From an uncultured Lachnospiraceae bacterium (lineage in GTDB: Bacteria > Bacillota > Clostridia > Oscillospirales > CAG-272): 64,000 nucleotides of DNA. Positions 13,751 to 61,573 of the stretch are shown piece by piece (the first letter of the stretch is position 1; each line of letters opens with the position of its first letter). The notes below the pieces were generated by a model, which was not told the origin of the DNA, ran no database searches, and worked only from the letters and a program-made list of their open reading frames with translations. The stretch is taken from assembly GCA_964603455.1 (NCBI GenBank), contig CAZRVL010000001.1, forward strand, positions 17,031 to 81,030. The letters run 5' to 3'. Position numbers and translations under genes: made by a program.

Positions 13751-13779
13751 TTGACAAAATGCAAAAAGTGGTGTATAAT
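13751..13779 (+). promoter_or_regulatory. Sigma-A type promoter of the recombinase-MATE operon
   Basis: TTGACA (13751-13756), 17 nt, TATAAT (13774-13779). The transcript would begin with the hairpin TGCAGAC-AATG-GTCTGCA followed by GTTTTT (13788-13811). Confidence 0.7.
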
Positions 13780-13834
13780 AGTGATATGCAGACAATGGTC
13801 TGCAGTTTTTATATATTATTGTGGAGGATATTAA

Positions 13835-14851
13835 ATGCAGACTCTTATAGACCCGGATGAACTTCCGAAGGTCGTTCGGGATTTTATGGCACATAAGCAG
13901 ACTGTCCAAGGAAGAGCTAAAAAAACTATGGAAGAATATGCGCTCGACATACGCACATTTCTGCGTTGGCTGACCTTGAAACGTAAGGGCATAGAAAAAA
14001 TTGATAACGATGAGCTTCAGCAAATAGATATATCCAAGCTCGATACCGAATTTATAACCTCGGTCACATCTGAGGAGATATACACTTTCCTTTTTTATAC
14101 ATTAAATGAAAGACAAAACCAACCGGCATCACGCGCAAGAAAATTATCCGCGCTTAAAAGCTTTTACAAATATATAACCGTATCCGCAAGACTTTCGGAC
14201 AACGACCCGACAAAAAATATTGAAGGTCCTCAGAAAAAGCAATCTCTGCCAAAATATTTGACGCTTGAAGAGAGCGAAGAACTGCTGAATGCGATAAAGA
14301 ACGACACAGAATCGAAAAGTGTCGCACGTGATTACTGCATAGTAACGCTTTTTTTGAACTGCGGAATGCGGCTTTCCGAGCTGTGCAATATAAATCTGTC
14401 TGACATCGATCGAAATTTGGAATCTCTCAGAGTGACCGGAAAGGGATCGAAGGAAAGGCTTATATATCTGAACGATTCCTGCCGCAGAGCGATCTCAGAT
14501 TGGCTTGCCGCACGAAGTACAGACCCCGAAATACGCGACAAGGACGCATTGTTTCTGTCATCGAGACACACGCGCATATCAAACAAGACCGTTCAATGGA
14601 TGGTATATAAATATCTCGATGCGGCAGGTCTCGGAAATAAATCGCTCTCAACGCACAAACTGCGTCACACCGCAGCTACTCTTATGTATCAGAGCGGAAA
14701 TGTTGATGTTCGAGTACTCAAGGATATTCTCGGACATGAGCAGTTGAACACGACTCAAATATACACACACGTGAGCGATGAAAACATGAAAAATGCGATT
14801 GACCACAATCCGTTAAATCAAAGCAAAAACAAAGAGGATAAAGAAAATTAA
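13835..14851 (+). CDS. Tyrosine recombinase, XerC/XerD-like
   Basis: N-terminal SAM-like core-binding region. Catalytic motifs RLSELCNI, HKLRHTAAT and LGHEQLNTTQIYTHV. Confidence 0.85.
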   Translation: MQTLIDPDELPKVVRDFMAHKQTVQGRAKKTMEEYALDIRTFLRWLTLKRKGIEKIDNDELQQIDISKLDTEFITSVTSEEIYTFLFYTLNERQNQPASRARKLSALKSFYKYITVSARLSDNDPTKNIEGPQKKQSLPKYLTLEESEELLNAIKNDTESKSVARDYCIVTLFLNCGMRLSELCNINLSDIDRNLESLRVTGKGSKERLIYLNDSCRRAISDWLAARSTDPEIRDKDALFLSSRHTRISNKTVQWMVYKYLDAAGLGNKSLSTHKLRHTAATLMYQSGNVDVRVLKDILGHEQLNTTQIYTHVSDENMKNAIDHNPLNQSKNKEDKEN

Positions 14852-14854
14852 AAT

Positions 14855-16228
14855 ATGGATACATCTGTCAATATAAAAAGCAAAGCTGATAAAAGTAATC
14901 TGACCGTTGGCTCTCTGCCAAAAAAAATACTTATATTCAGCCTTCCGCTGATGTTCTCAAACGTTCTTCAGGTGCTCTTTAATATGTCCGATATTGCAGT
15001 CGTAGGTCGATTTGCAGGTTCGAAGGCACTCGGCTCGGTCGGTTCTACAACTATAATAGTCATGCTTCTGACCGGAATATTGATCGGCATGGGAAGCGGA
15101 GTAAACGTTATCGTTGCGCGTTGTATCGGCGCAGGTCACAAAAAAGAGATCTCGGATTCTGTACATACAGCGTTTTTGATATGCCTTTTCACCGGTATAA
15201 CCGTTATGCTCGGCGGAATGCTGTTCTGCCGTCCGCTGCTCGAACTTCTCGGAACAAAAGCAGATCTTATAGACGGTGCAGAGCTTTATCTCCGCATATA
15301 TGCAATCGGAATGCCTGCACTCGGAGTATATAACTTCGGAAATGCGGTATACAGTGCAGCCGGAAACACAAAGAAGCCGCTGATATTCCTGCTAATATCA
15401 GGCATAATAAACGTGATACTCAATTTGATATTTGTCATAGTCATCCAGCTCAATGTAGCAGGTGTCGCACTCGCAAGCATAATCGCTCAGTACATCTCAG
15501 CGATCTCGGTAACTGTCTCGCTTATAAGATGTAAGGGAGATCACAAAATAATTCCAAAGAAAATAGGTCTGAATGCACATTTTTCAAAGCAGATAATCGC
15601 GCTCGGTCTTCCGGCAAGCTTTCAGAACTCTATATTCGCGATAGCTAATCTCTTCATTCAAGCCGGAGTCAACAGCTTCGACAGCATAGTTGTTGAAGGA
15701 AACTCAGCCGCTTCAAACGCCGACACGCTCGTATACGACCTGATGGCTGCTATATATACCGCTTGCTCGTCCTTTATGAGCCAAAATCTCGGAGCCGGAA
15801 AGCGTGACAGAGTTATAAAGAGCTATTTTTGGAGTCTTGCATATTCGTTCGGCGCGGCACTCATATTCGGAATATTTCTTGCGGCATTCGGAAATGAATT
15901 TTTGATGCTCTTTACAAAGGACACCGCAGTCGCGGCTGAGGGTATGGAAAGACTAAAGATAATGGCATTTTCATACTGCATATCGGCGTTCATGGACTGC
16001 ACGATAGCGGCTTCGAGAGGACTCGGAAAGAGTCTTGTACCGACTGTTATCGTGATAATGGGTTCGTGCGTATTCCGTGTTGCATGGGTATATACTGTAT
16101 TTGCATATTTCCACACTCTGCCAAGTTTATATCTGCTGTATGCCTTCTCATGGGCAATAACTGCCATTGCCGAAATAATATATTTTGCGCATAGCTTTAA
16201 AAAGCTCAAGCTCCCAAATGTCGCATAA
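14855..16228 (+). CDS. MATE family efflux transporter
   Basis: 457 aa with 12 predicted TM segments. Typical N-terminus LPKKILIFSLPLMFSNVLQVLFNMSDIAVVGRF. It starts 4 nt after the recombinase stop. Confidence 0.85.
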   Translation: MDTSVNIKSKADKSNLTVGSLPKKILIFSLPLMFSNVLQVLFNMSDIAVVGRFAGSKALGSVGSTTIIVMLLTGILIGMGSGVNVIVARCIGAGHKKEISDSVHTAFLICLFTGITVMLGGMLFCRPLLELLGTKADLIDGAELYLRIYAIGMPALGVYNFGNAVYSAAGNTKKPLIFLLISGIINVILNLIFVIVIQLNVAGVALASIIAQYISAISVTVSLIRCKGDHKIIPKKIGLNAHFSKQIIALGLPASFQNSIFAIANLFIQAGVNSFDSIVVEGNSAASNADTLVYDLMAAIYTACSSFMSQNLGAGKRDRVIKSYFWSLAYSFGAALIFGIFLAAFGNEFLMLFTKDTAVAAEGMERLKIMAFSYCISAFMDCTIAASRGLGKSLVPTVIVIMGSCVFRVAWVYTVFAYFHTLPSLYLLYAFSWAITAIAEIIYFAHSFKKLKLPNVA

Positions 16229-16231
16229 GAT

Positions 16232-17014
16232 CTACTTTCCGCGGTAATCGCGTGGTGTTCTTCCCGAAAATTTCATAAAAACACGATTGAAATTTCTCTG
16301 TGAGCCAAAGCCGCAATCATAGGCTATCTGCGTTATGCTCTGATCGGTCTCGCAAAGCAGATAGTATGCTCTTTCGACTCTAAGAGAATTTACAAAATCC
16401 GAGAAGCCGATACCAAGGCATTCGGACATTATGTGCGATATGTATGTGCTGTTGTACCCGATTATCTTTGAAGCATATTCCAAATTGAACTCTTGATTTG
16501 TATAGTTCTTCATGCAGACCGTGAGTATCAATTCTATCGTACTGCATTTTGACTGATTCCACGGTTTGAGCTCCACATTGTCAAAAAATTCGCTCAAAAG
16601 CGAAAGCAACATACCCTTCAAAACATTTTCATTCCGTGTTCCGCGGTTAAAATAATGTCCACAGCACATTATCATATCAGCATACCCCTTAAAAAGCTTC
16701 GATGTGCTTATGACCGGATCCTTTATTCGGTTATAGAGCATTATATTGCTGTACTCAGGAACGCTTGATGGCGGAACAATCATCATCAGCATATAATTTC
16801 GTTCGTCCGAAATATATTCGTGTTCTTCGAACGGCATTGCAAAATACATATCGCCCGGAGTCATTTTATACTCTTTTTCGCCGATCTTGACGGTGAATTT
16901 TCCGGAGATAAGATACAATATCTCAAATTCATAATGAAAATGATTATGGAATGACTTATTTTCCAAAAAGATAGCAAACGGCACTCTTGAATCCTTAACG
17001 AACTGCTTCTCCAA
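16232..17014 (-). CDS. AraC family transcriptional regulator (cupin sensor plus HTH)
   Basis: N-terminal cupin-like region (FHNHFHYEFEILYLISG) and C-terminal AraC HTH (GFGSQRNFNRVFMKFSGRTPRDYR). Confidence 0.8.
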   Translation of the reverse strand: MEKQFVKDSRVPFAIFLENKSFHNHFHYEFEILYLISGKFTVKIGEKEYKMTPGDMYFAMPFEEHEYISDERNYMLMMIVPPSSVPEYSNIMLYNRIKDPVISTSKLFKGYADMIMCCGHYFNRGTRNENVLKGMLLSLLSEFFDNVELKPWNQSKCSTIELILTVCMKNYTNQEFNLEYASKIIGYNSTYISHIMSECLGIGFSDFVNSLRVERAYYLLCETDQSITQIAYDCGFGSQRNFNRVFMKFSGRTPRDYRGK

Positions 17015-17160
17015 AATTACATCATCCTTTCAAAAATTCATGTAATCATTATACCACAAATCACATGATATGTCTATATCATGTTCGAAAAATTCTTTTA
17101 AAAATATATTAATTGAGGTATAATAAACTTGCAAATATAATTTTTGAAAGGATGTTTTTT

Positions 17161-18588
17161 ATGAAAAACAAAATAACAGCTCTGCTCCTCGTTGCAGCTC
17201 AGCTCGCACTCTTCTCATGCGGTGATCAGCAAAACAGCAACACTGAATCTTCAATTGAAGACACTCAAAGCGGCGATACCACAGCAAGTGACGGATATTC
17301 TCCGTCTAAGACATTTGATGACAAAGAGGTAAATATACTTCTTTGGACAGGAAGCCGCATCGCCGTAACAGAGGAAACCGGCGATGTAATAGATGACGCT
17401 GTATATAAAAGGAATCTTAAGGTAGAGGATGAGCTTAAGGTAAAGTTTAAGTATGATTCACGTACCGGTCACGGAAATGAATACAGTTCATGGCTCTCGA
17501 CCTTAAATTCAAGCATACTCGCAGGCGACAACGCATATCAGCTCGCCGGAGGATACGGCTACAGACTTTCAACAGAAGCTCTGAGCGGAAACTTTATGGA
17601 TCTCGCTGACAATCCATACATTGACTTCACAAAGCCATGGTGGCCGTCAAATATAATCGAAGCTGCCGATATAGGCGGAAAAATAACTATGGCATTCGGA
17701 AACATAGATCCTGTATACTATGATTCGACTTATGCGGTATTCTTCAATAAGGTCATTGCCGAGGATAATAAGCTCAATGATATATATCAGCTCGTAAATG
17801 ACGGCAAATGGACGCTCGACAAATTTCTCGAATATTCGCAGACTGCTGCAGATGATCTCAACGGCGATTCAAAAATGACCGAAGAAGACAGATACGGTGT
17901 ACTTTTCGACACGGCTATGTCGATAGACGCATTCATAAATTCCTGCGATATTAAAATAACCTCCAGAGATTCTGACGGACTTCCGAAGCTCATCGGATTA
18001 TCTGAAAAATATATAAATGTACAGCAGAAGCTGCGTTCCGCTATACACAATTCGGATCATGTAAGCTATGGAAATGAAAACAACAGCACGCTTTTTATGA
18101 GCGGAAAAGCACTTTTCATGCCGGTAAGTCTCAAATCCGCACATACTCTCCGCGCAATGGATGACGATTTCGGCATAATCCCTTATCCGAAATACAATGA
18201 GGAACAGGAAAAATACATCACTCACAACTCCATCGGAAACACGACCGCATATCTCGTTCCGATAACCTCGGACGCGGAGCTTGCGGGTTGCGTACTTGAA
18301 GCATTGGCTTATTACGGTTACAAGGATATTCTTCCCGAATACTATGAACGCGCATTAAAGGGTAAGGGCACTCGCGATGATGAATCGGCAGCGATGCTCG
18401 ATTTGATATTCGCCAACATCGAATTTGAATTTACCCAGATATATTCCTTCAATTTCGGCGACAATAAATCACCATCAATGGCACTCAGAGCCTCTGTATA
18501 CTATGACGAAGAGCTGGCATCGACATGGGCTAAGAGTGAAAATCTGTATGAGGAAACGATGAAGAACCTCATAAATGAACTCAAATAA
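17161..18588 (+). CDS. Solute-binding-protein-type lipoprotein, paralog 1 (LplA-like family-1 SBP, no cognate permease nearby)
   Basis: SD GAAAGGA lies 8 nt before ATG 17161. Lipobox LALFSCGD. Family motifs FGIIPYPKYNEEQEKY and YYERALKGKGTRDDESAAMLDLIF. Confidence 0.65.
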   Translation: MKNKITALLLVAAQLALFSCGDQQNSNTESSIEDTQSGDTTASDGYSPSKTFDDKEVNILLWTGSRIAVTEETGDVIDDAVYKRNLKVEDELKVKFKYDSRTGHGNEYSSWLSTLNSSILAGDNAYQLAGGYGYRLSTEALSGNFMDLADNPYIDFTKPWWPSNIIEAADIGGKITMAFGNIDPVYYDSTYAVFFNKVIAEDNKLNDIYQLVNDGKWTLDKFLEYSQTAADDLNGDSKMTEEDRYGVLFDTAMSIDAFINSCDIKITSRDSDGLPKLIGLSEKYINVQQKLRSAIHNSDHVSYGNENNSTLFMSGKALFMPVSLKSAHTLRAMDDDFGIIPYPKYNEEQEKYITHNSIGNTTAYLVPITSDAELAGCVLEALAYYGYKDILPEYYERALKGKGTRDDESAAMLDLIFANIEFEFTQIYSFNFGDNKSPSMALRASVYYDEELASTWAKSENLYEETMKNLINELK

Positions 18589-18671
18589 TTCCAAAATTTA
18601 ACTTGGCAAACAACAATTCTTGTGCAGAAAAAGTGATATGTAAAATATATGTAAATATTTCCTTGAATCTA

Positions 18672-18702
18672 TTGACAAATTTCGGGGGGGGGGTGGTATA
18701 AT
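18672..18702 (+). promoter_or_regulatory. Promoter of SBP paralog 2 with a homopolymeric G10 spacer
   Basis: TTGACA (18672-18677), a 19-nt spacer containing G10, then an extended -10 TGGTATAAT (18694-18702). ATG 18744 follows SD AAGGAGA. Confidence 0.7.
18684..18693 (+). repeat. Homopolymeric G10 tract
   Basis: Read directly as ttcGGGGGGGGGGtgg. I saw no comparable homopolymer elsewhere in the window. Confidence 0.95.
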
Positions 18703-18743
18703 GTTGATATATTATGAATTTTTCTTGCACAAGGAGAATAAAA

Positions 18744-20177
18744 ATGAAGCTCAAATTAACAGCACTGCTGCTCATCGCGGCACAGCTCGCCATGTTTTCA
18801 TGCGGCGATAATTCGAATGTTGATACCGAGACCACAACAGACACACAATCCGAAACGACCGAAGTCGGTGACGGATATTCTGTAAGTAAGACTTTCGAAG
18901 GTCAGGAGGTCAATATCCTGCTTTGGTCATTAACCGGGATCAATGTGACCGAGGAAACAGGAGATGTCATAAACGATGCTGTATATCATAGAAATCTCAA
19001 TGTAGAGGACGAGCTTAAGATAAAGCTCAAATATGATGTACGCGCAGGTCACGGCGGAGATTACGGCAACTGGATATCAACGTTAAATGCAAGCATAATG
19101 GCAGGAGACAATGCTTATCAGTTGGCAGGTGGATACGGATACCGTCTAACCGGAGACTCGCTCAACGACAGCTATATGAACCTGAAAGACAATCCGTATA
19201 TAGACTTCACAAAGCCCTGGTGGCCATCAAATATCATCGAGGCATCCGACCTCGGCGGACGTATGACTGTAGCCTTCGGCAACATCGATCCATCCTATTA
19301 CAACACGACTTACGATATATGCTTTAATAAGCAGATAGCCGAGGATCTCAAATTTGATGATATATACACCATCGTAAAGGATGGCAAATGGACACTCGAT
19401 AAGCTTATAGAATATTCGAAACTCGCGGCTGCAGATCTTGACGGTGATACAAAGATGACAGATGCTGACAGATACGGACTCATTTGTGACAATAATATGT
19501 GTGTAGATGCGTTCATAAATTCCTGCGACATAAAGATAACCGAAAAGGATTCCAACGGTGTTCCTTCACTTATCGGTCTGACCGAGAGATATACAAATCT
19601 CTATGACAAATTATACGATTTTTTGAAGACATCCGATTCGGCATATCTCTGTGATGATATGGACAATGTTAATGTAAAGCTGTTCATGAGCGGAAAAAGT
19701 ATGTTCTTCGCTTCCAGATTCCGCGATATACATACTCTCCGTTCGATGGACGATGATTTCGGTGTAGTTCCATATCCGAAGTACGATGAGGCTCAGGAAG
19801 AATATTATACCTACAATGCTATAGGAAACTCTACCTCGTTCATCGCACCGGTTACAGCCGATGAAGAACTCACCGGATGCCTTCTCGAAGCATTGGCATA
19901 TCACGGATACAAAGAAATTCTTCCCGAATACTACGAACGTGCGCTCAAAGGCAAGGGAACACGTGATGACAGCTCGGCAGAAATGCTCGATATAATATTC
20001 AACAATGTCAAGTATGACTTTACACAGATATACTCCTTCAACTTCGGCGATCAGAAGGCTCCGTCTATGGCTCTCAGAATGTCTTTAAAAAATAGCAATC
20101 CTATCTCATCTCTCTGGGCTTCAAATCAGAACATATACGATGAGACTATGGAAAAACTCACAAGTACACTTAAATAA
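18744..20177 (+). CDS. Solute-binding-protein-type lipoprotein, paralog 2 (tandem duplicate of paralog 1)
   Basis: Lipobox LAMFSCGD. Collinear with paralog 1 along its full length, roughly two-thirds identical by eye. Motifs FGVVPYPKYDEAQEEY and YYERALKGKGTRDDSSAEMLDIIF. Confidence 0.65.
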   Translation: MKLKLTALLLIAAQLAMFSCGDNSNVDTETTTDTQSETTEVGDGYSVSKTFEGQEVNILLWSLTGINVTEETGDVINDAVYHRNLNVEDELKIKLKYDVRAGHGGDYGNWISTLNASIMAGDNAYQLAGGYGYRLTGDSLNDSYMNLKDNPYIDFTKPWWPSNIIEASDLGGRMTVAFGNIDPSYYNTTYDICFNKQIAEDLKFDDIYTIVKDGKWTLDKLIEYSKLAAADLDGDTKMTDADRYGLICDNNMCVDAFINSCDIKITEKDSNGVPSLIGLTERYTNLYDKLYDFLKTSDSAYLCDDMDNVNVKLFMSGKSMFFASRFRDIHTLRSMDDDFGVVPYPKYDEAQEEYYTYNAIGNSTSFIAPVTADEELTGCLLEALAYHGYKEILPEYYERALKGKGTRDDSSAEMLDIIFNNVKYDFTQIYSFNFGDQKAPSMALRMSLKNSNPISSLWASNQNIYDETMEKLTSTLK

Positions 20178-20184
20178 TATGCTT

Positions 20185-20212
20185 CTCCCTGCATTTTTTG
20201 CAGGGAGTTTTT
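20185..20212 (+). terminator. Rho-independent terminator
   Basis: CTCCCTGCA-TTTTT-TGCAGGGAG followed by TTTTT. Confidence 0.8.
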
Positions 20213-20313
20213 ATATATAAATGCACGATTATTTTGACAACTCCACTTGTTTTATTAACAATTTTGGGGTATAATAGAATTATGATAATCAAAGCATTCA
20301 AGGAGAACGCACA

Positions 20314-21726
20314 ATGGAAAATTATGAGAATCCTCACAATATCGCTCCGGAGCTGTTTGAGACCATCTGCGCTCAGCGTGAATTTTTCGCTACTGGAAAG
20401 ACACGTGACATTTCATTCAGAAGACAGCTTCTTATAAATCTGAGAATAATGATACGAGACAACGAAGGACTTATTTTAGAGGCTCTGCGCGCCGATCTCG
20501 GAAAATCCTATACCGAAGCATATATGACCGAGATCGGAATGGTCGATCAGGAAATAAACCATACTCTGCGCTATCTGAAGGTTTGGAATGCGCCCGACAC
20601 GACTGCCACACCGTATTTTCTATGGCCTGCTTCGAGCAAAAAATATCACCATCCACGCGGACTCGTAATGATCTTTTCGCCGTGGAATTATCCGTTCCTT
20701 TTATCTATACAGCCGCTCATCTCCTCGATAGCTGCCGGAAACTGCACAATACTTAAGCTGTCAGAGCAATCTCCGCGTACATCAAAGCTACTTTGTGAGC
20801 TGATCGACAAATATTTTGACCGCGAATACATCGCAGCTTACATCGACAGCTTCGAAGCGGTAAAAGCTGTCCGTTGGGAGCAGTTCGGATTGGTATTTTA
20901 TACCGGAGGTCCGACCGTTGCAAGAATAATCTCAAAAGCGGCGGCAGCTCAGCTCACACCGGTAGTACTTGAACTCGGAGGAAAATCCCCCTGCATAGTT
21001 GACCGAACCGCAAATCTAAAGCTTGCAGCCAAGCGCATTGTCGCCGGAAAGCTGCTCAACGCCGGACAGACCTGTGTTGCACCAGATTATCTTTATGTCG
21101 AATCATGTGTCAAAGAGGAATTTATCGGATATTTAAAGGAATACTGCGACAGATTTTGCCAGGCTTCTCCGACCGAAAACAAATTCTATCCGAAGATAAT
21201 AAACAAAATGCACTTCGACCGACTCAAAAATTATCTTGCCGACGGAGATATAATATTCGGCGGCGAGGTCAATGAGGAAAACAACCGCATATCTCTTACA
21301 CTTATGGAGCATATCAAAAAGGACAGCAAGCTCGCAAGCGAAGAAATATTCGGTCCGATACTGCCGATATTCGAATTCGGAGATATAAATATTGTTATAA
21401 ACACGCTCAAAAAGCGTCCGAAGCCTCTCGCATTATACCTTTTCTCAAAGAACAAGGAGACCTGCAAAAATGTGCTCGACAATCTCGATTTCGGCTGCGG
21501 CTGCATAAACGACACAGTAATGCAAATCGCCAATCCCCACCTTCCCTTCGGCGGTGTCGGCGAAAGCGGAATGGGACGCTATCACGGAAAAGCCGGATTC
21601 GATACCTTCAGCACAGAAGCCTCTGTGATGAAATCTTCATCGCACATAGATATAAATCCCTTCCGCTATCCGCCATATGACGATAATTACGGATTGCTGA
21701 GAGTGATACTCAGGTATCTTATATAA
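20314..21726 (+). CDS. NAD(P)-dependent aldehyde dehydrogenase (class 3-like)
   Basis: Motifs ELGGKSP, catalytic Cys in GQTCVAPDY, EEIFGPILP and FGGVGESGMGRYHG. Confidence 0.85.
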   Translation: MENYENPHNIAPELFETICAQREFFATGKTRDISFRRQLLINLRIMIRDNEGLILEALRADLGKSYTEAYMTEIGMVDQEINHTLRYLKVWNAPDTTATPYFLWPASSKKYHHPRGLVMIFSPWNYPFLLSIQPLISSIAAGNCTILKLSEQSPRTSKLLCELIDKYFDREYIAAYIDSFEAVKAVRWEQFGLVFYTGGPTVARIISKAAAAQLTPVVLELGGKSPCIVDRTANLKLAAKRIVAGKLLNAGQTCVAPDYLYVESCVKEEFIGYLKEYCDRFCQASPTENKFYPKIINKMHFDRLKNYLADGDIIFGGEVNEENNRISLTLMEHIKKDSKLASEEIFGPILPIFEFGDINIVINTLKKRPKPLALYLFSKNKETCKNVLDNLDFGCGCINDTVMQIANPHLPFGGVGESGMGRYHGKAGFDTFSTEASVMKSSSHIDINPFRYPPYDDNYGLLRVILRYLI

Positions 21727-32089: not shown

Positions 32090-33544
32090 TTATTCAGACA
32101 TCATATTCATAAATGAGTCGATCTCTGCCTGCGCTCCCTCAGCATACTGCTCATACCACGAAGCAAAATCTGTGCTGTTATTTATGCAGACAAGCTCCTC
32201 AAGCGTGTAGAACAGCTTCATCATGTTAGTTCCGAAGCCGAAATAGTTCATTCCCGCGTCATATACGATATTGTCGAATATAATATCCATCATAGCTGCT
32301 GAATCATCATCGCGTGACAGCTTTCCGACAAGCGTAACATCATAATATGCGGGGATAGTGGTCTTCTGACTGATATAGCTCATATAATCGATGACCTTCG
32401 CGACCATTTCGGGATTCTTTATAGATGCAGGTATACACATAAGAGAGCCCCAGTCATTTGTATAATAGTTGTCCTGTGCTTCATCGTATTTCGGAAATGG
32501 AAGTATGCCGAAATCAACATCGCTGTCTCGAAAATCGTATATCTGATAGAGAGGATACCATTGGAAGAGCGAACGTCCGCTGTCCATATTTATCTGCACG
32601 GATTTATCGTTCACGTAAGCATACGACCAGATATAGATCGATTGGTCGTTGTTAAGTGCTTTATTGAATTTTTCAATTATGTCTATAGTTTTTTCGCTGT
32701 AGTATGCCAACTCAAAGCCATCATCATTCTTATCTGCAAGGAATATGTCACATGCATATGGAATGCAGTTGAGTATCCAGTTACCGAGTCCGGTGATGCC
32801 GTATTGATCATTCACGTCCATAGTCGAATCGCCGTTAATATCGACTGTCGCTTTTTCAGCCATCTCATACATTTTATCGAAAGTCCATGTTCCATCGTAT
32901 ACAAGCTTATATGGATCTTCCATTCCGAAATCGGTTATCATGTCCTTATTGAACAATATGCAGCATGGATTTGCTATCATGTAATCCGAAACAGCATAAT
33001 ATTGCTTATCTCCGAGAGAGAGCGCATCGTTGAAGTTTCGGTTGTAATAATCCTTTGAGAAGTCAATATACGGCAGCTCGTTCCAATCGTAAAGGCTTCC
33101 GCTCGTCAGCATATCAGATACACCGCGTATACAGTGCGGAAGAGCCAATTGGAAGGAATCGTCTCCGGCAGCTACTGTCTGCTGCACCGTACTTGCAAGA
33201 TCACGATGTGTCGGAACGATATAGTTTTCTATCTCGACACCAAGATAATCTTCGGTCATGAGCTCACGCTCATATATCGCATCATTCATACGGTCGCCGT
33301 TCGCTTCCTCAGCAAAGAAATATTCATCATAGAAAGGAAGCTCGAATGCGAGTATAGTGAATTTCTCACCGCCGAAATCAGATCTTTCAAAATCCGGAGT
33401 ATCAGCAGCCTTTGTACCGCTATCAGAGTTCGAAGCAGAGCTATCGCTTGATGCTTCGGTATTTTCTCCGTTTTCGTTATTGCCGCATGAGAACGCGGAA
33501 AGCAACATGGACGCTAAAAGTATCAGGGTTATCGCTCTTTTCAT
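32090..33544 (-). CDS. Solute-binding-protein-type lipoprotein, paralog 3
   Basis: SD GAAAGGA precedes ATG 33544; the track start 33562 is a TTG inside the SD. Lipobox LSAFSCGN. Motifs FGILPFPKYDEAQDNY and YYDVTLVGKLSRDDDSAAMMDIIF. Confidence 0.6.
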   Translation of the reverse strand: MKRAITLILLASMLLSAFSCGNNENGENTEASSDSSASNSDSGTKAADTPDFERSDFGGEKFTILAFELPFYDEYFFAEEANGDRMNDAIYERELMTEDYLGVEIENYIVPTHRDLASTVQQTVAAGDDSFQLALPHCIRGVSDMLTSGSLYDWNELPYIDFSKDYYNRNFNDALSLGDKQYYAVSDYMIANPCCILFNKDMITDFGMEDPYKLVYDGTWTFDKMYEMAEKATVDINGDSTMDVNDQYGITGLGNWILNCIPYACDIFLADKNDDGFELAYYSEKTIDIIEKFNKALNNDQSIYIWSYAYVNDKSVQINMDSGRSLFQWYPLYQIYDFRDSDVDFGILPFPKYDEAQDNYYTNDWGSLMCIPASIKNPEMVAKVIDYMSYISQKTTIPAYYDVTLVGKLSRDDDSAAMMDIIFDNIVYDAGMNYFGFGTNMMKLFYTLEELVCINNSTDFASWYEQYAEGAQAEIDSFMNMMSE

Positions 33545-33580
33545 TTTGATATTTCCTTTCAATGAAAAATTATTTTTAGA

Positions 33581-52323: not shown

Positions 52324-53802
52324 TCACTCGATATTTCTTACCAGTTCGGTGATCTCAGCAAGATAATTTTCTGCCGATGATTTGTTTGAATCATAGTATG
52401 AAGTTATGTTTACATTCTTTTTGGCAATATTGTCGCGGTATGAGTTCATAGGAGAGAACTTGTACTTTCCGCTCGCTTCAAGGAACATCGAGAAGTCATA
52501 TTTTCTCGAATCCATGATGAGATCAAGCATCTTCAGAGAATTTTCATCGCGAACGCCCTTCTCTGCCAACGAGACCTCATATACCGCAGGTCTCATATAT
52601 TTGTAGCCGTATGCAGACATACACTCTACAACTTCACCGATCACTTCAAGCTTTTCATCACTTATGTTTATCGGGAGGAAGAAGACTCCGGTACGTCCAA
52701 GCATATGCGTTTGATATTCTGCCTGATTCTCATCGAGCTTCGGGTACGGAAGTATTCCGTAGTCGTCACTCATTGATCTAAGGTCTGTTCCGATAAGATA
52801 ATTCAAAAGCATCGGCGAGAATAATGCCTGTCCGTTCGCAAAATTAACTCGATAATCATACGGTGCGTTCGTATCTACATAAGCCCCCGAATTGTTCCAG
52901 TAGAGATCATACAGCTTCTCTATCGATGTAACCAATCTGTCACTGTAGAAATCTACGACCGGGTAATTGTCGCTGTCGCGTCCTATTGATGTAACACCGT
53001 GCGACACCATGAAAGCGTCAAGTGTTGCAAATGAATCGGTATATAAGCCGTAAATATCATCCGCATCGCTCTGATTGTTTCCGTTTAGATCGACATATAC
53101 ATCCTTTGTAAGCGAATATGCCTTGTCCATAGTCCATTTACCAGACTCGACTGTCTCGTAAATATCGCCGATATTCCACTCATCTGCAAGACGCTTATTG
53201 AACACCCACGTCCAACACATCGTTATATTTGTGGAACAAGCATCAGAAAGTATTCCGAATTGACTGTCACCTATCTTTATCTGCTCGTTAGCATCCTCTA
53301 CATACCACGGCTTAGAAAGGTCGTAACCCTTCACATCGTTCCACGGCATTACCGTTCCGCTCGTTATGATATTTCCGGCATATATCGCCTTCATAACATA
53401 CATATCACAGAGATTGTCACCTGCCAGAATGCTCTGATTGAAGGTCGAGACCGAATCGCGTTCGGCGAATGAGCAGTCGTATACCAATTTCACGCCAAGA
53501 CGATTTTCGGTTTCGATATTGCGCTTATATATCGCGTCATCGACCGGTTCACCGGTCTGCTCGGCTTCGAATGCCTCGGAATCCACATAGTTGTAGCCTG
53601 CCGCTCCGTAGCCGAATATCCTTATCTCCATTCCATCCATATCGCGCTGAGGAAGCTCATCGTATATGTCTACCTCGTTAGAGGTAGTCTCATTAGAACT
53701 TGTTTGCTCAGTTCCCCCCTCAGTGGAAATAGTTTCATTTCCGCACGCTGCTGTCGAAATCAGCAGAGACGCAAGAAGTGCAACAGATACCGCCTTTTTC
53801 AT
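52324..53802 (-). CDS. Solute-binding-protein-type lipoprotein, paralog 4
   Basis: SD GAAAGGA lies 11 nt before ATG 53802. Lipobox ISTAACGN. Motifs YGILPYPKLDENQAEY and YEVSLAEKGVRDENSLKMLDLIM. Confidence 0.6.
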   Translation of the reverse strand: MKKAVSVALLASLLISTAACGNETISTEGGTEQTSSNETTSNEVDIYDELPQRDMDGMEIRIFGYGAAGYNYVDSEAFEAEQTGEPVDDAIYKRNIETENRLGVKLVYDCSFAERDSVSTFNQSILAGDNLCDMYVMKAIYAGNIITSGTVMPWNDVKGYDLSKPWYVEDANEQIKIGDSQFGILSDACSTNITMCWTWVFNKRLADEWNIGDIYETVESGKWTMDKAYSLTKDVYVDLNGNNQSDADDIYGLYTDSFATLDAFMVSHGVTSIGRDSDNYPVVDFYSDRLVTSIEKLYDLYWNNSGAYVDTNAPYDYRVNFANGQALFSPMLLNYLIGTDLRSMSDDYGILPYPKLDENQAEYQTHMLGRTGVFFLPINISDEKLEVIGEVVECMSAYGYKYMRPAVYEVSLAEKGVRDENSLKMLDLIMDSRKYDFSMFLEASGKYKFSPMNSYRDNIAKKNVNITSYYDSNKSSAENYLAEITELVRNIE

Positions 53803-53825
53803 TAATATATCCATCCTTTCATAAA

Positions 53826-56342
53826 TTATTTTTTATAGTTCCAATGCTCATCGGGGAGAATATCATACGGGCGCAGAAATTCGAGCTTTCTGTAGTCACC
53901 GAAATTTTCCTTTGCCTGGAAGCATATTGAAACACCTCCGCTTATATGCTTTCCGACATAGCAACCACGCTTCTCATCATATTCAAGCTCACATTTCGGA
54001 CCTCTCCAAAGATCCCAGACACCGCCGACAAATGCTGTTCCTCCCTTTTCGGGATATATCGTCAGTTCGGCATCGCAAAGTCCGTTTATGACATATCTTT
54101 CATCGTTGTTGACCACAACGTCCGCAACATGTTCGCGCTTTAAAGAGATCTTCGAACGCTTTTCCTGCTTCACGAAGACACGGCAGTCGGTATGTATCCA
54201 TCTTGACAACGGATACGTTCCGATACTGTTGTCGATGGTAAATTCGCTATTGTCAAACGCAGGTGCTCCGAGCGGAGTCGTGTAATTCATCTTTACTGAA
54301 GCATCCTTTGCAAAGAGATTATATACAAGCGAATTGCGGCATTTTGCGAACTGAACTATCGGAAGATTATCATCAACACTGAAGGTCTCAAACGTCAAGC
54401 CATATCCGAACAGCTCAAGCGCACATCTCGGGAGCATCGCAGTCGGGAAATACTTCGAAGGCATGAGCTTCGGAGGGAGTCCGCCCTTGTCTCCGTGAGG
54501 GAACGAGCCGCGTATCCATACAAGCCCCATATCCTTGTTATAGGTCATATACGCACGCTTTTCGCCGTCCTTCGATACCTCGGCAGCGACATAAGTGCTA
54601 CCGTTCGAAATCTCGCCGATACCGCCGTTCGACATGAGAGAGGGATGGGAGATCATATTGGAATATTCATTCACCTCAGCCTTGTCGAGCTTAAGCTCAG
54701 TCGAAAGCTCAAGTTCACCGCAAAGCTCGGTCGAATATGCTATGCCGACAGCATCAAGAAGCTTTCTTGACGCATTTCGCAAACTTCCGACCAGGATAAC
54801 TCTAACACCCTTCTCAATAGCCTCGAACAATGCCGCTTCGAGTCGGCTGTCAGCCTTCGGAACAGGTGTGAAAAGTATAGTGTTCACGAGTCCGGACTTA
54901 TCACAGACGATGAAATTCTCATCGGATATTACGCTGTTCAGCGGCATTCCCATATCAATAGCCGCTTCAACATACCAGTCGTCCATGAAAATCTCCGAGA
55001 TATGTCCCTCATGAAGACCGCTCTCGCAGTATGCCTCGAAGGGATATACCCATGTTACAAGTCCGGCCTCATCGGGATAATCGTTGTATGCGGTAAGAAG
55101 GTGCGGTATGACCTCATTCGGACAACGTTCGGGAAGTCTGCCGTATGAATCGTCTGCCGACAGGAAGCTGAGTCCGAACGGCTTTGTAACCTCAAGCTTT
55201 TCGTCGAGTCGAGCCAAAGCGAGCGGAAGATATATATCATGCGGACTGCGGTCATATCTGTCGAACCACGGCGAATTTATCCACCATGGGTCATGTATAT
55301 AATAACGAAGGTTGAAGCCCTTCTCAGGCAAACGTGCAGTATGCGACATACAGCCTGCAAGCTCAAGACCGAAACGATAGTTGAGCGGTGCCCAGGGAGA
55401 GTTCGGCGGTGCTACAAGGTTCTTTTGAGAATATATCTCATCTATCGGACAGCCGTGCGCCGAAATATCCATTCCGGTCGAGAGATTCGAGCCGCGTGTT
55501 TCGACCCTTGTATCGCCGATCTCGGCTGTGAAATATTTCCAGAACTCAGATATGTTATCGCGCACCTTTTTTGCGCCGTCAAAGTTGAATTCAGTTCCGT
55601 TGAAAAGCTCACCTGTCCAGTTCCAGGAAGCGAGCGAGAAACCGAAGCCGTTCGACAGCCAAATATAGTCAAAGCCCAGATCGCGCTTCATAGCCATGAA
55701 CTGCCGTCCCAAGAACTCACCGATATGCGTACCTTCGGGAATACCGTTCGGATAAGCGGCATAATGCCTGTCATCACCGTGAAGCCTTGATGCACAATGC
55801 ACCCACATCTTGCTTCCCATAATATCGCCCTTGCATATCTCGGTGTGGCGGTTGTATTTAAAGTCTGACCATGCAAATTCAGGTCCCGGATCAAAGGTCT
55901 CGCCTACCTCGATGTCAAAGCCTGTGATCTCTTTACCGACACGCTTCATGATCGAAATTATGCGTTTCAGATCACCATAGGTCATTTCGGGCGGATTTTC
56001 GATGTAGTTCAGCGGATAAGCATGAAGACTGAGACGATCTGCGCGTGAATGCGGGTCTGATTCTCTGTTCCAGTTTCCTATACCGAGATATTTGCACCAT
56101 TCAAAGCTGTCATCCATATTGCCGGAATATTCGAGTATCTCCGAGCCGTCGCTCGTCCAAAAAAGCAGCGCACAGCCCGTTGCATATTTAAGTAGCGGTC
56201 TCCACTGATCAAACAGCTCACGTGCGACCTTTTCAAAGCCTTCATCGCTCATATCTCTGCCAAAAGGCTTAAGGCTTATCTCAAGGCATACTCTTCCGGC
56301 ATTCGTTGTGCTTTTATATTCGTAATTAAACATTATTTTCAC
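53826..56342 (-). CDS. Large cytoplasmic protein of unknown family (candidate carbohydrate-active enzyme)
   Basis: An uninterrupted 838-aa ORF with no signal peptide or TM, and no family motif I can name. It is flanked by the isomerase and SBP4 genes with 12- and 23-nt gaps. Confidence 0.5.
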   Translation of the reverse strand: MKIMFNYEYKSTTNAGRVCLEISLKPFGRDMSDEGFEKVARELFDQWRPLLKYATGCALLFWTSDGSEILEYSGNMDDSFEWCKYLGIGNWNRESDPHSRADRLSLHAYPLNYIENPPEMTYGDLKRIISIMKRVGKEITGFDIEVGETFDPGPEFAWSDFKYNRHTEICKGDIMGSKMWVHCASRLHGDDRHYAAYPNGIPEGTHIGEFLGRQFMAMKRDLGFDYIWLSNGFGFSLASWNWTGELFNGTEFNFDGAKKVRDNISEFWKYFTAEIGDTRVETRGSNLSTGMDISAHGCPIDEIYSQKNLVAPPNSPWAPLNYRFGLELAGCMSHTARLPEKGFNLRYYIHDPWWINSPWFDRYDRSPHDIYLPLALARLDEKLEVTKPFGLSFLSADDSYGRLPERCPNEVIPHLLTAYNDYPDEAGLVTWVYPFEAYCESGLHEGHISEIFMDDWYVEAAIDMGMPLNSVISDENFIVCDKSGLVNTILFTPVPKADSRLEAALFEAIEKGVRVILVGSLRNASRKLLDAVGIAYSTELCGELELSTELKLDKAEVNEYSNMISHPSLMSNGGIGEISNGSTYVAAEVSKDGEKRAYMTYNKDMGLVWIRGSFPHGDKGGLPPKLMPSKYFPTAMLPRCALELFGYGLTFETFSVDDNLPIVQFAKCRNSLVYNLFAKDASVKMNYTTPLGAPAFDNSEFTIDNSIGTYPLSRWIHTDCRVFVKQEKRSKISLKREHVADVVVNNDERYVINGLCDAELTIYPEKGGTAFVGGVWDLWRGPKCELEYDEKRGCYVGKHISGGVSICFQAKENFGDYRKLEFLRPYDILPDEHWNYKK

Positions 56343-58910: not shown

Positions 58911-59933
58911 TCATTCTCTGTTATACTTTCTGAAAAGCTCAATAGCGGGCTTGCCCTTTGGAGTAAAGCCACAGTTTCCGGCAGGGTCTGAGTCGAGGAA
59001 TGGACGATCGAGCTGCTCATCCCACTTCCACCAGCATATTCCGCGCCACCAGCTCTCGTTCTTAAAGGTCTCAACGACCGCTTCGAGATAATTTGCCTGT
59101 TCCATGCCGTCATATTTCGGAGTAAGACTCCAACCGGCAGGACTCATCGCACCGCCCTCTCTCGATGTACAGCCGCATTCGCCGAAAAGCAATGGCTTGC
59201 CGTATATTTCGGCGCATTTTCTGAACCTTTCAAGCAGTGGCACAAATGCTGTCTTCAGCTCTTCGAGTGTAGGATTCGGTTTAGTAGCTGCCTTGTAGTA
59301 GCAGCTTATCGACAGAAGATCGAGGTCATGGAACCAATGATTTTTGTTCTTAACCGCCGCTTCGAAGTCGATATGCCCAAGATGACAGGTGTGACAGGAG
59401 GTTACAGGACCGCTGTAAACCTCTCGAACCGCTCGAATGACCTCCTTCCATTGACTGTTGAAAGGAACTATGAGGTCCAATTCGCTGTCAAGACAGAACA
59501 TTTCGCAGCCTGTGCGCTCGGCTATCTTTGCATAATGAACCGAACGCGCCTTCATGCTCCTGAACCATCTCGCAGCATGATCGGTCGCACAGCCCGGAAT
59601 GCGGTTAGCCGAATCCCATGGAAACCATGTAGAAAGTCTGTCCGAGCCATCAAGTCCTTCGAGCATCGGTCTAAGCTGTATCTTTATGCCAAGACTGTGA
59701 AGATAGTTTATCATATCCACAAGCTCTATATCGGTCGGGGTCAGCTCAAAATCCATGAACTGGAAATTTGCCGAATAGTTCTCCTGGAACACAGTAGCGA
59801 CAAGAGTCACCCACTTTATACCGGCAGCCGCAATAGCATCGGCTTCAGCCTTAGCCTCAGGCGATTCATAATATCCGGCTTTCGCACGGAATCCGAATGT
59901 AACACCATATTGTCTTTCATCGATAACGTTCAT
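58911..59933 (-). CDS. TIM-barrel glycoside hydrolase, clan GH-A-like (GH113/GH5-like), cytoplasmic
   Basis: 340 aa. Beta/alpha-barrel-like pattern with candidate catalytic Glu residues (FCLDSELD, LLFGECGCTS). ATGA overlap with the upstream gene. The family assignment is tentative. Confidence 0.45.
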   Translation of the reverse strand: MNVIDERQYGVTFGFRAKAGYYESPEAKAEADAIAAAGIKWVTLVATVFQENYSANFQFMDFELTPTDIELVDMINYLHSLGIKIQLRPMLEGLDGSDRLSTWFPWDSANRIPGCATDHAARWFRSMKARSVHYAKIAERTGCEMFCLDSELDLIVPFNSQWKEVIRAVREVYSGPVTSCHTCHLGHIDFEAAVKNKNHWFHDLDLLSISCYYKAATKPNPTLEELKTAFVPLLERFRKCAEIYGKPLLFGECGCTSREGGAMSPAGWSLTPKYDGMEQANYLEAVVETFKNESWWRGICWWKWDEQLDRPFLDSDPAGNCGFTPKGKPAIELFRKYNRE

Positions 59934-61573
59934 TTTGATTCTCCTTTTGTGCTCTTAAAAAGAACACCGTATTTTAAATTATTTACAAAAAGCATATCAT
60001 GTTCGGTCGAAAGCTCTGCAGTCTCATCGTCCCAAATATTTATGACTTCAAGTTGTTCGTAAAGCGGTATCTCTATTACCTTTTTAGAGATAATAGACTC
60101 ATCCTTTAAGTCACGCAGTATATTCTTCCAGTTGTACGACTTGTTTCTCAGATAACCGAGTACCGAATTTTTGCCGCGCAGGATGAGAAGAATAAATTCA
60201 TCATCCTCATATACAAATGATCTGAACTCTTCGCGATCAAATTCTATACCGCGTGAAAGTATCTCGATAGGCTTGAAATATTTATAAAGATTCTTTGACT
60301 CGACATATCGTCCGTCCCAATGCCAGATATGACCACAACCTGCCGCACAGCAGAATATCGGAGTATAAACGAGATCACAGAATATCATTCCGTTGTGATC
60401 GGCATTGTAATATCTGAAAGGTCCGGAATGACAGTTGTTGACCGCTCCGGTCTCAGCGACTATAAACGGCTTGTTCGGCTCTGCGAGACGAACTACCGCA
60501 TCACGTATCAGAGCTATCGTGTCATCATGGCAGATCTCATAGCCTGAACCTTGATCGAGGTAGCGATGCACCTGTTTTATATCCGAAAGCTCCCAGACGA
60601 AATTTTTATACAGCTCATATACTCCGTCACAGTCGAAGCTTCCGAGAGAATTCATCACTAAATGCCGCTTGAAAAGTTCCTTTACTTTCGGGAGCATATA
60701 CCTGTTCCATTCGAGCATCTCATTCCAAGGCAAGCAGTTCATTTCGTTCCAAAGCTCTATGCCGAATACAGTCGGATCTCCCGAAAAGCGTTTGGCAAGC
60801 TCTTTGACCTTATAAAGCCACTTTTCGCGCCAAACATCATCTCTGAGCCATTCTGCGGCACTTTTACAGCGTCGGTCTCCGATATAAAGCCGCTTATTGA
60901 ACTTTCGGAAAACATCATCCGAATATGAATCCGAATCCGCGACTCTCTCATAATCAAAGAATCTGAATTGTTCCAGAGTGAGCTTCAGTTTTATATCATA
61001 TTTTTTCGAAAGCTCTACTAGATATTCGATTTTCGAAAGCTTTATATTGTCAAGCACTCCGGCTTCTTCTGTGTCCGGCGAAAAATATTCGTGACCTATC
61101 CATATTCTGACAATATTCACACCGTTTTTGCTGCATTCGCGAAACCAATGCTCGTATTGACGCATTCCGAGATACTTGAAACCCGAGCAACCGAACTCAT
61201 CGCCGTTTGACTTCGAATACGGAGTTATAAAGGCTAAGTTTATGCCTATCGGGCAAAACGAAGTCGAGTCACTGTAGGCAAAATATCTCGGATCTTTCTT
61301 ACTAACTTCAACATATCCGTGCAGATCCGATTCGACACATTCAAATTCTCCGCCGTCAAAGCTGTATACTCCAAGCTCATCCGGGAAAAATCTGACAAGC
61401 TTATAAGGACTCTGAACAGCCGTCACTCTTTCTCCGCCCTCATCATCATAGTAAAATTCTATCGGTTGATATTCAAACGGTTCGAGGATCGTCACTTTTC
61501 CGCTCGGAGACACAAGAGTGATGCTATGCTCACTCTTGTATTCAAATTTTCCGTATAACTTTATCTGCTCCAT
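59930..61573 (-). CDS. GH5-like (clan GH-A) glycoside hydrolase, cytoplasmic
   Basis: Acid/base motif GIELWNEMN and nucleophile-type motif PFIVAETGAV. No signal peptide. Confidence 0.6.
   Translation of the reverse strand: MEQIKLYGKFEYKSEHSITLVSPSGKVTILEPFEYQPIEFYYDDEGGERVTAVQSPYKLVRFFPDELGVYSFDGGEFECVESDLHGYVEVSKKDPRYFAYSDSTSFCPIGINLAFITPYSKSNGDEFGCSGFKYLGMRQYEHWFRECSKNGVNIVRIWIGHEYFSPDTEEAGVLDNIKLSKIEYLVELSKKYDIKLKLTLEQFRFFDYERVADSDSYSDDVFRKFNKRLYIGDRRCKSAAEWLRDDVWREKWLYKVKELAKRFSGDPTVFGIELWNEMNCLPWNEMLEWNRYMLPKVKELFKRHLVMNSLGSFDCDGVYELYKNFVWELSDIKQVHRYLDQGSGYEICHDDTIALIRDAVVRLAEPNKPFIVAETGAVNNCHSGPFRYYNADHNGMIFCDLVYTPIFCCAAGCGHIWHWDGRYVESKNLYKYFKPIEILSRGIEFDREEFRSFVYEDDEFILLILRGKNSVLGYLRNKSYNWKNILRDLKDESIISKKVIEIPLYEQLEVINIWDDETAELSTEHDMLFVNNLKYGVLFKSTKGESK

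Follow-up and report, generated by a model that had tools for sequence, protein, structure and literature searches.

A 64-kb stretch of DNA from an uncultured bacterium of the gut Clostridia (hereafter the window, i.e. the whole stretch analysed, with positions counted from its first nucleotide) carries an uninterrupted run of ten guanines, G10, in the spacer between the -35 and -10 hexamers of a promoter. The gene downstream, paralog 2, encodes a surface lipoprotein and lies directly after a second gene of the same family, paralog 1. We propose, with a probability of roughly 0.55, that the tract acts as a functional slipped-strand “volume control” promoter of the kind known from porA of Neisseria. 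The proposal is carried by the anatomy of the promoter, the conservation of the tract, the surface-protein target, the recurrence of such tracts in the protein family and the length polymorphism of the tract at analogous loci.

In the model that we favour, G10 would be a conserved, slippage-prone homopolymer within a consensus promoter of the housekeeping sigma factor (sigma-70/SigA type; TTGACA, 19 nucleotides (nt), TGnTATAAT) that would drive the second of the two tandem lipoprotein genes. For the window locus itself we infer slippage, an effect on transcription and a selective benefit: slippage during replication would add or remove guanines and change the distance between the two hexamers, G9 or G8 (18 or 17 nt) giving a stronger promoter and G11 or more (20 nt or more) a weaker one. 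The extended -10 TG would keep up a basal level, read-through from paralog 1 would provide a second input, and G10 would be the prevailing state in the populations sampled. The element may be one member of a wider class of poly-G-spacer promoters placed before surface-protein genes in gut Clostridia.

A G10 tract in the spacer of a consensus promoter

Direct reading upstream of paralog 2 gives, on the forward strand, ATCTA-TTGACA-AATTTC-GGGGGGGGGG-TGG-TATAAT-GTTGATA. The -35 hexamer TTGACA (18672-18677) is a perfect consensus. It is followed by a 19-nt spacer (18678-18696) of the form AATTTC-G10-TGG, ten of whose 19 bases belong to the homopolymer (18684-18693), and by an extended -10 element (18694-18702) comprising TG at -15/-14 (18694-18695, flagged as a TGn motif), a further G and TATAAT (18697-18702). 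The end of TATAAT and the start codon of paralog 2 (ATG at 18744) are 42 nt apart, and the Shine-Dalgarno sequence AAGGAG (18731-18736) stands 7 nt before the ATG. As in a porA-type promoter, an uninterrupted homopolymer of at least about 8 nt separates recognisable hexamers, here TTGACA and TGGTATAAT.

G10 is the sole run of G or C of at least 7 nt in the 64 kb, and only one other run, a C6, reaches 6. Under a first-order Markov model, about 0.005 runs of at least 10 nt are expected in the window and none of 200 simulated windows contained one, while runs of at least 6 nt are under-represented (2 seen vs 4.2 expected). Elsewhere in the window, perfect TTGACA and TATAAT hexamers are paired over spacers of 17 nt (six pairs), 18 nt (one) and 22 nt (one, probably a chance pairing); most of the perfect promoters begin TTGACAAA and several have TGn. 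A preliminary description of the window had reported the layout of TTGACA, 19-nt spacer and G10, had given 17-18 nt as the spacing of the other strong promoters and had seen no comparable homopolymer elsewhere. On re-reading, layout and coordinates proved exact and the homopolymer stood alone among the G and C runs, the 22-nt pair being the one exception to the spacing.

An imperfect inverted repeat brackets the promoter, with arms at 18619-18632 and 18720-18733 (14 nt, 86% complementary). Its right arm adjoins the Shine-Dalgarno sequence and is shorter by one T in a second lineage. Pairing between the two arms could occur in a read-through RNA from paralog 1, with a minimum free energy of -36.3 kcal/mol (z = -2.3), and would cover part of the ribosome site; transcripts initiated at the G10 promoter would be without the left arm. 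Rfam gave no match within 16900-20400.

Conservation of the promoter core between strains

The locus was recovered by exact-protein look-up in the Logan assemblies of SRR14160765, SRR27361838, SRR17244091, SRR17244096 and SRR6824203. Together with the window, these make up three lineages: the window and the identical contig of SRR14160765 (L001); two contigs of SRR27361838 (L006 and L007), about 99.3% identical to the window; and the contigs of SRR17244091, SRR17244096 and SRR6824203 (L002, L003 and L004, respectively). Since an identical G10 with identical flanks is present in six independent assemblies, the tract is not an assembly artefact. Further look-ups via paralog 2, the aldehyde dehydrogenase and paralog 1 led to SRR36265358, SRR36265372 and a second contig of SRR14160765, none of which crosses the promoter. 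An exact-flank scan of metagenome contigs with free tract length (TTGACAAATTTC-N4-18-TGGTATAATGTTGA) returned no match, the species being absent from that set.

When the L002/L003 lineage is compared with the window, paralog 1, the aldehyde dehydrogenase and the homoserine dehydrogenase are 98.1-99.0% identical, the coding sequence of paralog 2 is 91.4% identical, and the intergenic DNA is 88.5% (18589-18666) and 92% (18719-18743) identical. The synonymous divergence (dS) of paralog 2 between lineages is 0.31, with a ratio of nonsynonymous to synonymous divergence (dN/dS) of 0.13; the two downstream genes have a dS of 0.045-0.049. Judged from these sequences, paralog 2 and the intergenic region upstream of it (18589-20177) form, between strains of one species, a local divergence hotspot that looks like an old or imported surface-protein allele, and divergence of this kind between strains is typical of exposed, selected surface proteins. 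Inside this region, the core promoter block (18667-18718), to which the -35 hexamer and the tract belong, is 100% identical, with 0 differences in 52 nt; at the hotspot's own rate, the chance of this is about 0.009. The constancy of a 52-nt core with an uninterrupted G10 inside such a hotspot argues for selection on the promoter core. In L003 (SRR17244096), paralog 1 has a +1 insertion at window position 17859 (CTC-AAC to CTCAAAC) giving frames of 245 and 223 amino acids (aa), which could reflect a pseudogene in that strain or an assembly error.

Tract length varies at promoters of the same design in metagenomes

We scanned metagenome contigs with the pattern TATTGACAAA-N1-5-G7-N1-9-TATAAT, which returned 81 stretches, 80 of them analysed (L093-L172). 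Spacers of 15-19 nt are found in 82%, vs 56% expected with both gaps uniform. About one quarter of the 80 instances lie clearly before genes for lipoproteins (including one of 1,872 aa) or for type IV pilin-like proteins with the N-terminal methylation motif; several other downstream genes resemble those of signal-peptide proteins, and many were left unassigned by a crude open-reading-frame call. The argument for a class rests on same-locus length series, not on enrichment.

Such series were found at loci S1-S4. In S1, whose promoter has the form TATTGACAAATATAT-Gn-TATAAT and precedes the gene of a lipoprotein of about 195 aa, the tract is G9 (L153), G10 (L111 and L142), G11 (L095, L135 and L137) or G12 (L113 and L123). 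The flanks of the G9 member L153 and of the G11 members L135 and L137 are 98.8-100% identical, and close variants have G10, G12 and G14. In S2, before the gene of a pilin-like protein, lengths of G11, G11, G12, G13 and G14 go with 89-95% identity downstream and only 24-50% upstream (400-nt alignment). S3, before the gene of the 1,872-aa lipoprotein, has G9, G9 and G10 with flanks 98.5-99.8% identical, and S4, whose downstream gene is not assigned, has G8 or G9 with flanks 95.5-100% identical. At promoters built in this way, the tract can thus change in length from one near-identical strain to the next, and slippage at such tracts therefore happens in gut Clostridia.

The S1 lipoprotein shows the same pattern as the window locus: its mature part is hypervariable (65-90% identity), and promoter and signal peptide are conserved. 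It is represented by 1,453 protein clusters, and its closest named homolog, from Faecalibacterium prausnitzii, is 79% identical. The product of a flanking gene occurs on 663 contigs, one of 2.86 Mb, which points to a very common human-gut species; the protein cluster of the S2 neighbour has one member named “Eubacteriales bacterium”. From these loci we tentatively raise a broader suggestion, held with a little less confidence than the reading of the window promoter: poly-G tracts in spacers (occasionally in 5' coding or upstream positions) may constitute a widespread, undescribed slippage phase-variation system in gut Clostridia (Oscillospiraceae and relatives), the abundant human commensal Faecalibacterium prausnitzii included, which would tune hypervariable lipoproteins, type IV pilin-like proteins and “orphan” solute-binding-fold lipoproteins.

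Poly-G tracts in the lipoprotein family

The family of paralog 2 was surveyed at 80 loci from reference genomes (438 kb), in which runs of G or C of at least 8 nt were counted. Seven of the eight are located at -200 to +150 relative to the start of a family gene, an interval covering 8.4% of the surveyed DNA (binomial P = 2e-7). A part of this enrichment at 5' ends could come from intergenic DNA being more permissive to homopolymers.

One spacer tract belongs to a second, distant paralog subfamily. In the rumen genome RUG11171 (L081, 1253-1280), a terminator is followed by CTATTGACA-AATTCA-G10-TG-TATAAT, with an 18-nt spacer, before a gene whose product, a lipoprotein of 486 aa, shares about 30% identity with paralog 2. 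Among the orthologs of this gene, two loci from two Logan samples (L089 and L090, ~1410-1445; protein 87% identical to that of L081) read CTATTGACA-AAAAT-G11-TG-TATAAT, and a further locus (L088, ~1410-1445; 94% identical) has an interrupted tract, CTATTGACA-AATCAT-GGGTGAGGGG-TG-TATAAT; the spacer is 18 nt in each. In L092 (~1380-1440; 73% identical) the G tract is absent; TGTGATATAAT is preceded there by a (TA)n-rich spacer, ATATATATATATACATATATATAT, a simple promoter repeat of a different type. With S1-S4 and this second family gene, tract length is polymorphic at homologous or analogous loci in related organisms, as expected of porA-type promoters.

Further runs stand at other positions. 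The two G9 runs of L014 (2372-2380 and 4067-4075) belong to an upstream module that is present in duplicate; they precede tandem family genes by about 120 nt and the -35 element of a likely TTGATT-17-TATAAT promoter by 19 nt. The runs of L033 (2289-2297 and 2546-2554) are a C9 in a long leader or upstream region and a G9 in the coding region of an N-terminal linker (Gly-Gly-Gly), the latter, one of the seven near a gene start, being a candidate frameshift switch. These four G9 or C9 runs, at three family genes, all come from one metagenome-assembled genome (MAG), Clostridiales bacterium ABMPRH_126_1. In L027 the leader contains a C9 (49-57).

Points against slippage control and alternative explanations

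Several observations weigh against a slippage-controlled promoter in the window. Firstly, the tract is G10 in all six assemblies, window included, with no length change at the locus. This counts weakly, since only three lineages are independent and power is low: three equal draws have P ~0.09 if lengths are distributed as at S1. Secondly, the spacer of the second subfamily is constant at 18 nt while its tract is G10, G11 or interrupted; because 18 nt is kept regardless of the tract, the consensus state there is selected for spacing, and the homopolymer is not required for promoter function. Thirdly, an extended -10 TG lessens the dependence of sigma-70-type promoters on the -35 element. The TG in the window promoter weakens the view, held in the preliminary description, that the 19-nt spacer is strongly sub-optimal, and together with possible read-through it could damp the effect of a one-base change.

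Fourthly, contig breaks at the tract are ambiguous. In SRR27361838, a 26-kb contig (L007) ends at 18698, 5 nt past the tract, and a 52-kb contig (L006) begins at 18673, 11 nt before it, the two overlapping by 26 nt. L001 starts at 18667, 17 nt before the tract, and a MEGAHIT contig (L005) starts 29 nt after it, inside the right repeat arm. At a second-subfamily locus, L091 starts 16 nt after its tract. Contigs from four samples, including SRR27361838, SRR14160765 and SRR17244088, end at most 30 nt from a poly-G tract; in the metagenome class, tracts near contig ends are in excess only about 2-fold (Kolmogorov-Smirnov p = 0.05). The tract is an assembly break point, which is compatible with heterogeneity among reads and equally with sequencing trouble at the tract; the breaks cannot separate the two because their positions fit missing k-mers better. 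Contig ends were rejected as a proxy for heterogeneity, their positions being unlike the branch points of a G9/G10/G11 bubble at k = 31.

The phase-variable promoter of the preliminary description is thus favoured by its anatomy, the lipoprotein target, the conserved core, the recurrence in the family and the length polymorphism at sister loci, and weakly disfavoured by a window tract that is G10 in three lineages. Of the two modes offered there, on/off or volume control, the latter fits better, since the TG of the extended -10 element, together with read-through that may come from paralog 1, would give graded control and not a clean switch. Read-through is possible because no terminator is predicted in 18589-18743, between the two genes. 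The G10 promoter, described as the only promoter-like element upstream of paralog 2, is indeed present, but transcripts of the gene need not come solely from it.

The main alternative, which we consider unlikely though well short of negligible, is a fixed G-rich element, be it the tract itself or simply a G-rich spacer beside the -10, kept at its exact length by purifying selection, for example for promoter strength, melting behaviour or contact with RNA polymerase or a regulator; length variants arising by slippage would in that case be infrequent and harmful, noise rather than a switch in use. A tract of exactly G10 in three lineages despite a dS of 0.31 in the adjoining gene speaks for this explanation, which is further favoured by the 18-nt spacing of the second subfamily with G10, G11 or GGGTGAGGGG and by the clustering of metagenome-class spacers at 15-19 nt. 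However, sister loci with near-identical flanks vary (G9-G12, G11-G14, G9/G10 and G8/G9). G-richness, moreover, needs no uninterrupted run of 10-16 guanines, which has a mutational cost, and long G or C runs are otherwise avoided in these genomes.

We regard as improbable an activator-dependent promoter, in which the over-long spacer would be weak until realigned by a MerR-like distortion of the DNA or rescued by recruitment through an AraC-type protein, the G run being filler. A 19-nt spacer is typical of MerR-type promoters, and that of the window falls within the 19-20 bp by which they are recognised. An AraC-family regulator is encoded nearby on the reverse strand (16232-17014; Pfam HTH_18 and AraC_binding, NCBIfam AraC-type), divergently from paralog 1, and the arrangement is the same in L007. 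But this gene is paired with paralog 1 and not with the G10 promoter, no MerR-family match was obtained among the scanned neighbours, and there is no dyad symmetry within or across the spacer (18672-18702), the nearby inverted repeats only flanking the whole promoter. The second subfamily and most members of the metagenome class have spacers of 15-18 nt, and an activator leaves the homopolymeric nature of the filler unexplained.

Even less probable is an invertible promoter, in which a XerC/D-like tyrosine recombinase would flip the segment of about 115 bp between the repeat arms and the G run would be irrelevant. The arms do bracket the promoter, L005 does start inside the right one, and a recombinase of 338 aa (13835-14851; below the XerC and XerD equivalog cut-offs, and kept in L007) is encoded 4 kb upstream with a perfect promoter. 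Yet all promoter-spanning assemblies have one orientation, at 14 nt the arms are short, with a complementarity of only 86%, the right one is without one T in the second lineage, and Logan contigs break at the G tract and not at the arms. Described invertible promoters measure roughly 150-800 bp, and the segment here is far smaller. No link was found between the recombinase and the G10 promoter; the perfect promoter of the recombinase gene (region 13751-14851) is TTGACA-17-TATAAT. Finally, a chance or neutral homopolymer, or a sequencing or assembly artefact, is effectively refuted, for although poly-G artefacts exist in two-colour Illumina chemistry, the same G10 and context stand in six independent assemblies, some 0.005 such runs are expected per window, the tract is conserved inside a divergence hotspot, and G tracts recur at homologous promoter positions in other species. 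A G-quadruplex was rejected by reasoning, since a single G run cannot form an intramolecular one.

Paralog 2 and its genomic neighbourhood

Paralog 2 (18744-20177, forward strand) encodes a 477-aa lipoprotein that begins MKLKLTALLLIAAQLAMFSCG, a lipoprotein signal with the lipobox MFSC and the lipidation site Cys20. The preliminary description had called it a solute-binding protein. Sequence gives this no direct backing: Pfam, NCBIfam and a sequence-profile search of the Protein Data Bank (PDB) returned no match for paralog 2, and SBP_bac_1 or SBP_bac_8 is matched by only 3 of 26 aligned relatives. The label is upheld by the fold. An AlphaFold model built from an alignment of relatives (mean local confidence, pLDDT, 87.9; predicted template modelling score, pTM, 0.86) was matched by Foldseek, with a probability of 1.0 and template modelling (TM) scores of 0.45-0.70, to the trehalose/maltose-binding protein TMBP and to UgpB, RafE, AbnE and MalE3. 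We take sugar-binding matches of the maltose/UgpB/RafE kind to be of the CUT1 class. On this model, paralog 2 is a lipoprotein with a solute-binding-protein fold resembling the sugar-binding proteins of ATP-binding cassette (ABC) transporters. Signal peptide and lipobox, solute-binding fold and divergence between strains are those of a surface product.

Paralog 1 (17161-18588, forward strand) encodes a 475-aa lipoprotein 63% identical to paralog 2; it has a weak SBP_bac_8 match, and its ortholog P0003, different at 2 residues, has an SBP_bac_8 match on record. Paralog 2 is followed by an intrinsic terminator (20185-20207, forward strand; a 9-bp stem with 6 G-C pairs, then a T run). Three more distant family members lie on the reverse strand of the window (32090-33562, 52324-53814 and 61576-63048). 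Among the scanned neighbours of the five family genes no permease was found (53826-56342 and 59930-61573 have no Pfam match); those neighbours encode GH113, GH127 and rhamnosidase-type hydrolases, a GDSL esterase, AraC and LacI regulators and metabolic enzymes. The five lipoproteins may be “orphan” binding proteins that share a transporter encoded at another site, or surface glycan-binding proteins. An A8 run (14920-14927) lies about 66 nt into a MatE-family transporter gene (14855-16228).

The family is large in uncultured gut Clostridia, with 842 related protein clusters (E-value up to 0.001). More than 583 family loci occur in reference genomes, often several per genome, the best match being 57% identical in a contig set that does not include the window's species. 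The nearest named relatives of the window bacterium are MAGs of Oscillospiraceae (“Ruminococcaceae”).

Implications

Contingency loci built on repeats have been described mainly in pathogens (Neisseria, Haemophilus, Campylobacter, Helicobacter and Mycoplasma); for gut commensals, the discussion of phase variation centres on invertible promoters and shufflons. The control of promoters by spacer homopolymers is well known in Gram-negative pathogens and Mycoplasma and probably new for gut Clostridia. The preliminary description knew of no such mechanism for solute-binding lipoproteins of Clostridia-like organisms, and we likewise found no report of poly-G or other homopolymer promoter phase variation in Clostridia, Lachnospiraceae, Ruminococcaceae or Faecalibacterium, or for solute-binding-type lipoproteins, in the literature searched, whose coverage is incomplete, so that absence is not proof. 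The Gram-positive examples found are intragenic or 5'-end tracts, in the pili of Bifidobacterium breve (PMC9187656) and in Cutibacterium acnes (PMC4746626).

If slippage control of the proposed kind is real, abundant gut Clostridia would have a cheap mutational means of varying how strongly they express surface lipoproteins, pilins and proteins of the glycan-binding type. Next to invertible promoters, gut commensals would then possess a second major route to phase variation. Such control would bear on how strains persist, how they escape phages and immunoglobulin A and how they divide the labour of capturing nutrients, and would explain recurrent assembly breaks and “hypervariable” small genes in metagenomes. 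Faecalibacterium prausnitzii is culturable. Since one member of the class was traced to this species and public read sets exist for the window locus, the class is directly testable.

Comparison with known systems

Invertible promoters are the mechanism usually considered for gut commensals (cited in PMC13484286). Those of the polysaccharide and utilisation loci of Bacteroides, and cwpV and the flagellar switches of Clostridioides difficile, resemble the proposed system in that gut anaerobes vary their surface. They differ in acting by site-specific inversion and not by slippage, and no inversion was seen in the assemblies of the window locus. In the fim genes of Bordetella, the variable tract lies between the activator site and the -10 element. 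Poly-C or poly-G tracts at the 5' ends of adhesin and surface-protein genes vary by strain in Cutibacterium (Propionibacterium) acnes and Bordetella pertussis (PMC4746626, PMC6560440, PMC1891110), organisms of other phyla in which the tracts have no link to solute-binding-type lipoproteins. The sortase-dependent pili of Bifidobacterium breve are switched by an intragenic G-tract that was deep-sequenced and is selected in vivo (PMC9187656). Here a Gram-positive gut commensal changes a surface structure by poly-G slippage, as proposed for the window; the host, however, is an actinobacterium, and the tract lies in coding sequence, so that the outcome is an on/off frameshift with no promoter-spacer element.

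Homopolymers in or beside promoters are closer in kind. The T-tract of Helicobacter pylori sabA is located upstream of the -35 element and acts via DNA geometry, not from inside the -35/-10 spacer. This T-tract “rheostat” and the poly-A promoter tract of Neisseria nspA tune expression stepwise and not on/off (PMC4081817, PMC6389960); they differ from the window in tract base, T or A, and in belonging to Gram-negative pathogens. Both are similar to it in having a homopolymer at the promoter. The vlp genes of Mycoplasma hyorhinis, a member of a Firmicutes-derived lineage, encode a family of variable surface lipoproteins that are switched by a poly-A located in the -35/-10 spacer. The vlp tract is poly-A of about 17-20 nt, and the system serves wall-less Mollicutes and repetitive antigens without a solute-binding fold.

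The nearest comparison is porA of Neisseria meningitidis, alongside which the poly-C promoters of Neisseria opc and fetA may be named. Its poly-G lies in the -35/-10 spacer, where single-base changes shift the distance of the hexamers and grade expression, which is high with 11G, 2.2-fold lower with 10G and 13-fold lower with 9G; the great majority of isolates share one tract length (PMC3639595). The two differ in host and product, porA encoding a porin of a Gram-negative pathogen behind spacers of 15-17 nt, and the window a solute-binding-fold lipoprotein of a Gram-positive-type gut commensal of the Clostridia. They differ also in that the prevailing state in the window, uniformly G10 in the assemblies, combines 19 nt with an extended -10. 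What they share is a homopolymer of 9-11 guanines in the spacer of a sigma-70-type promoter before a surface-protein gene, and the single prevailing length of porA matches the uniform G10 of the window.

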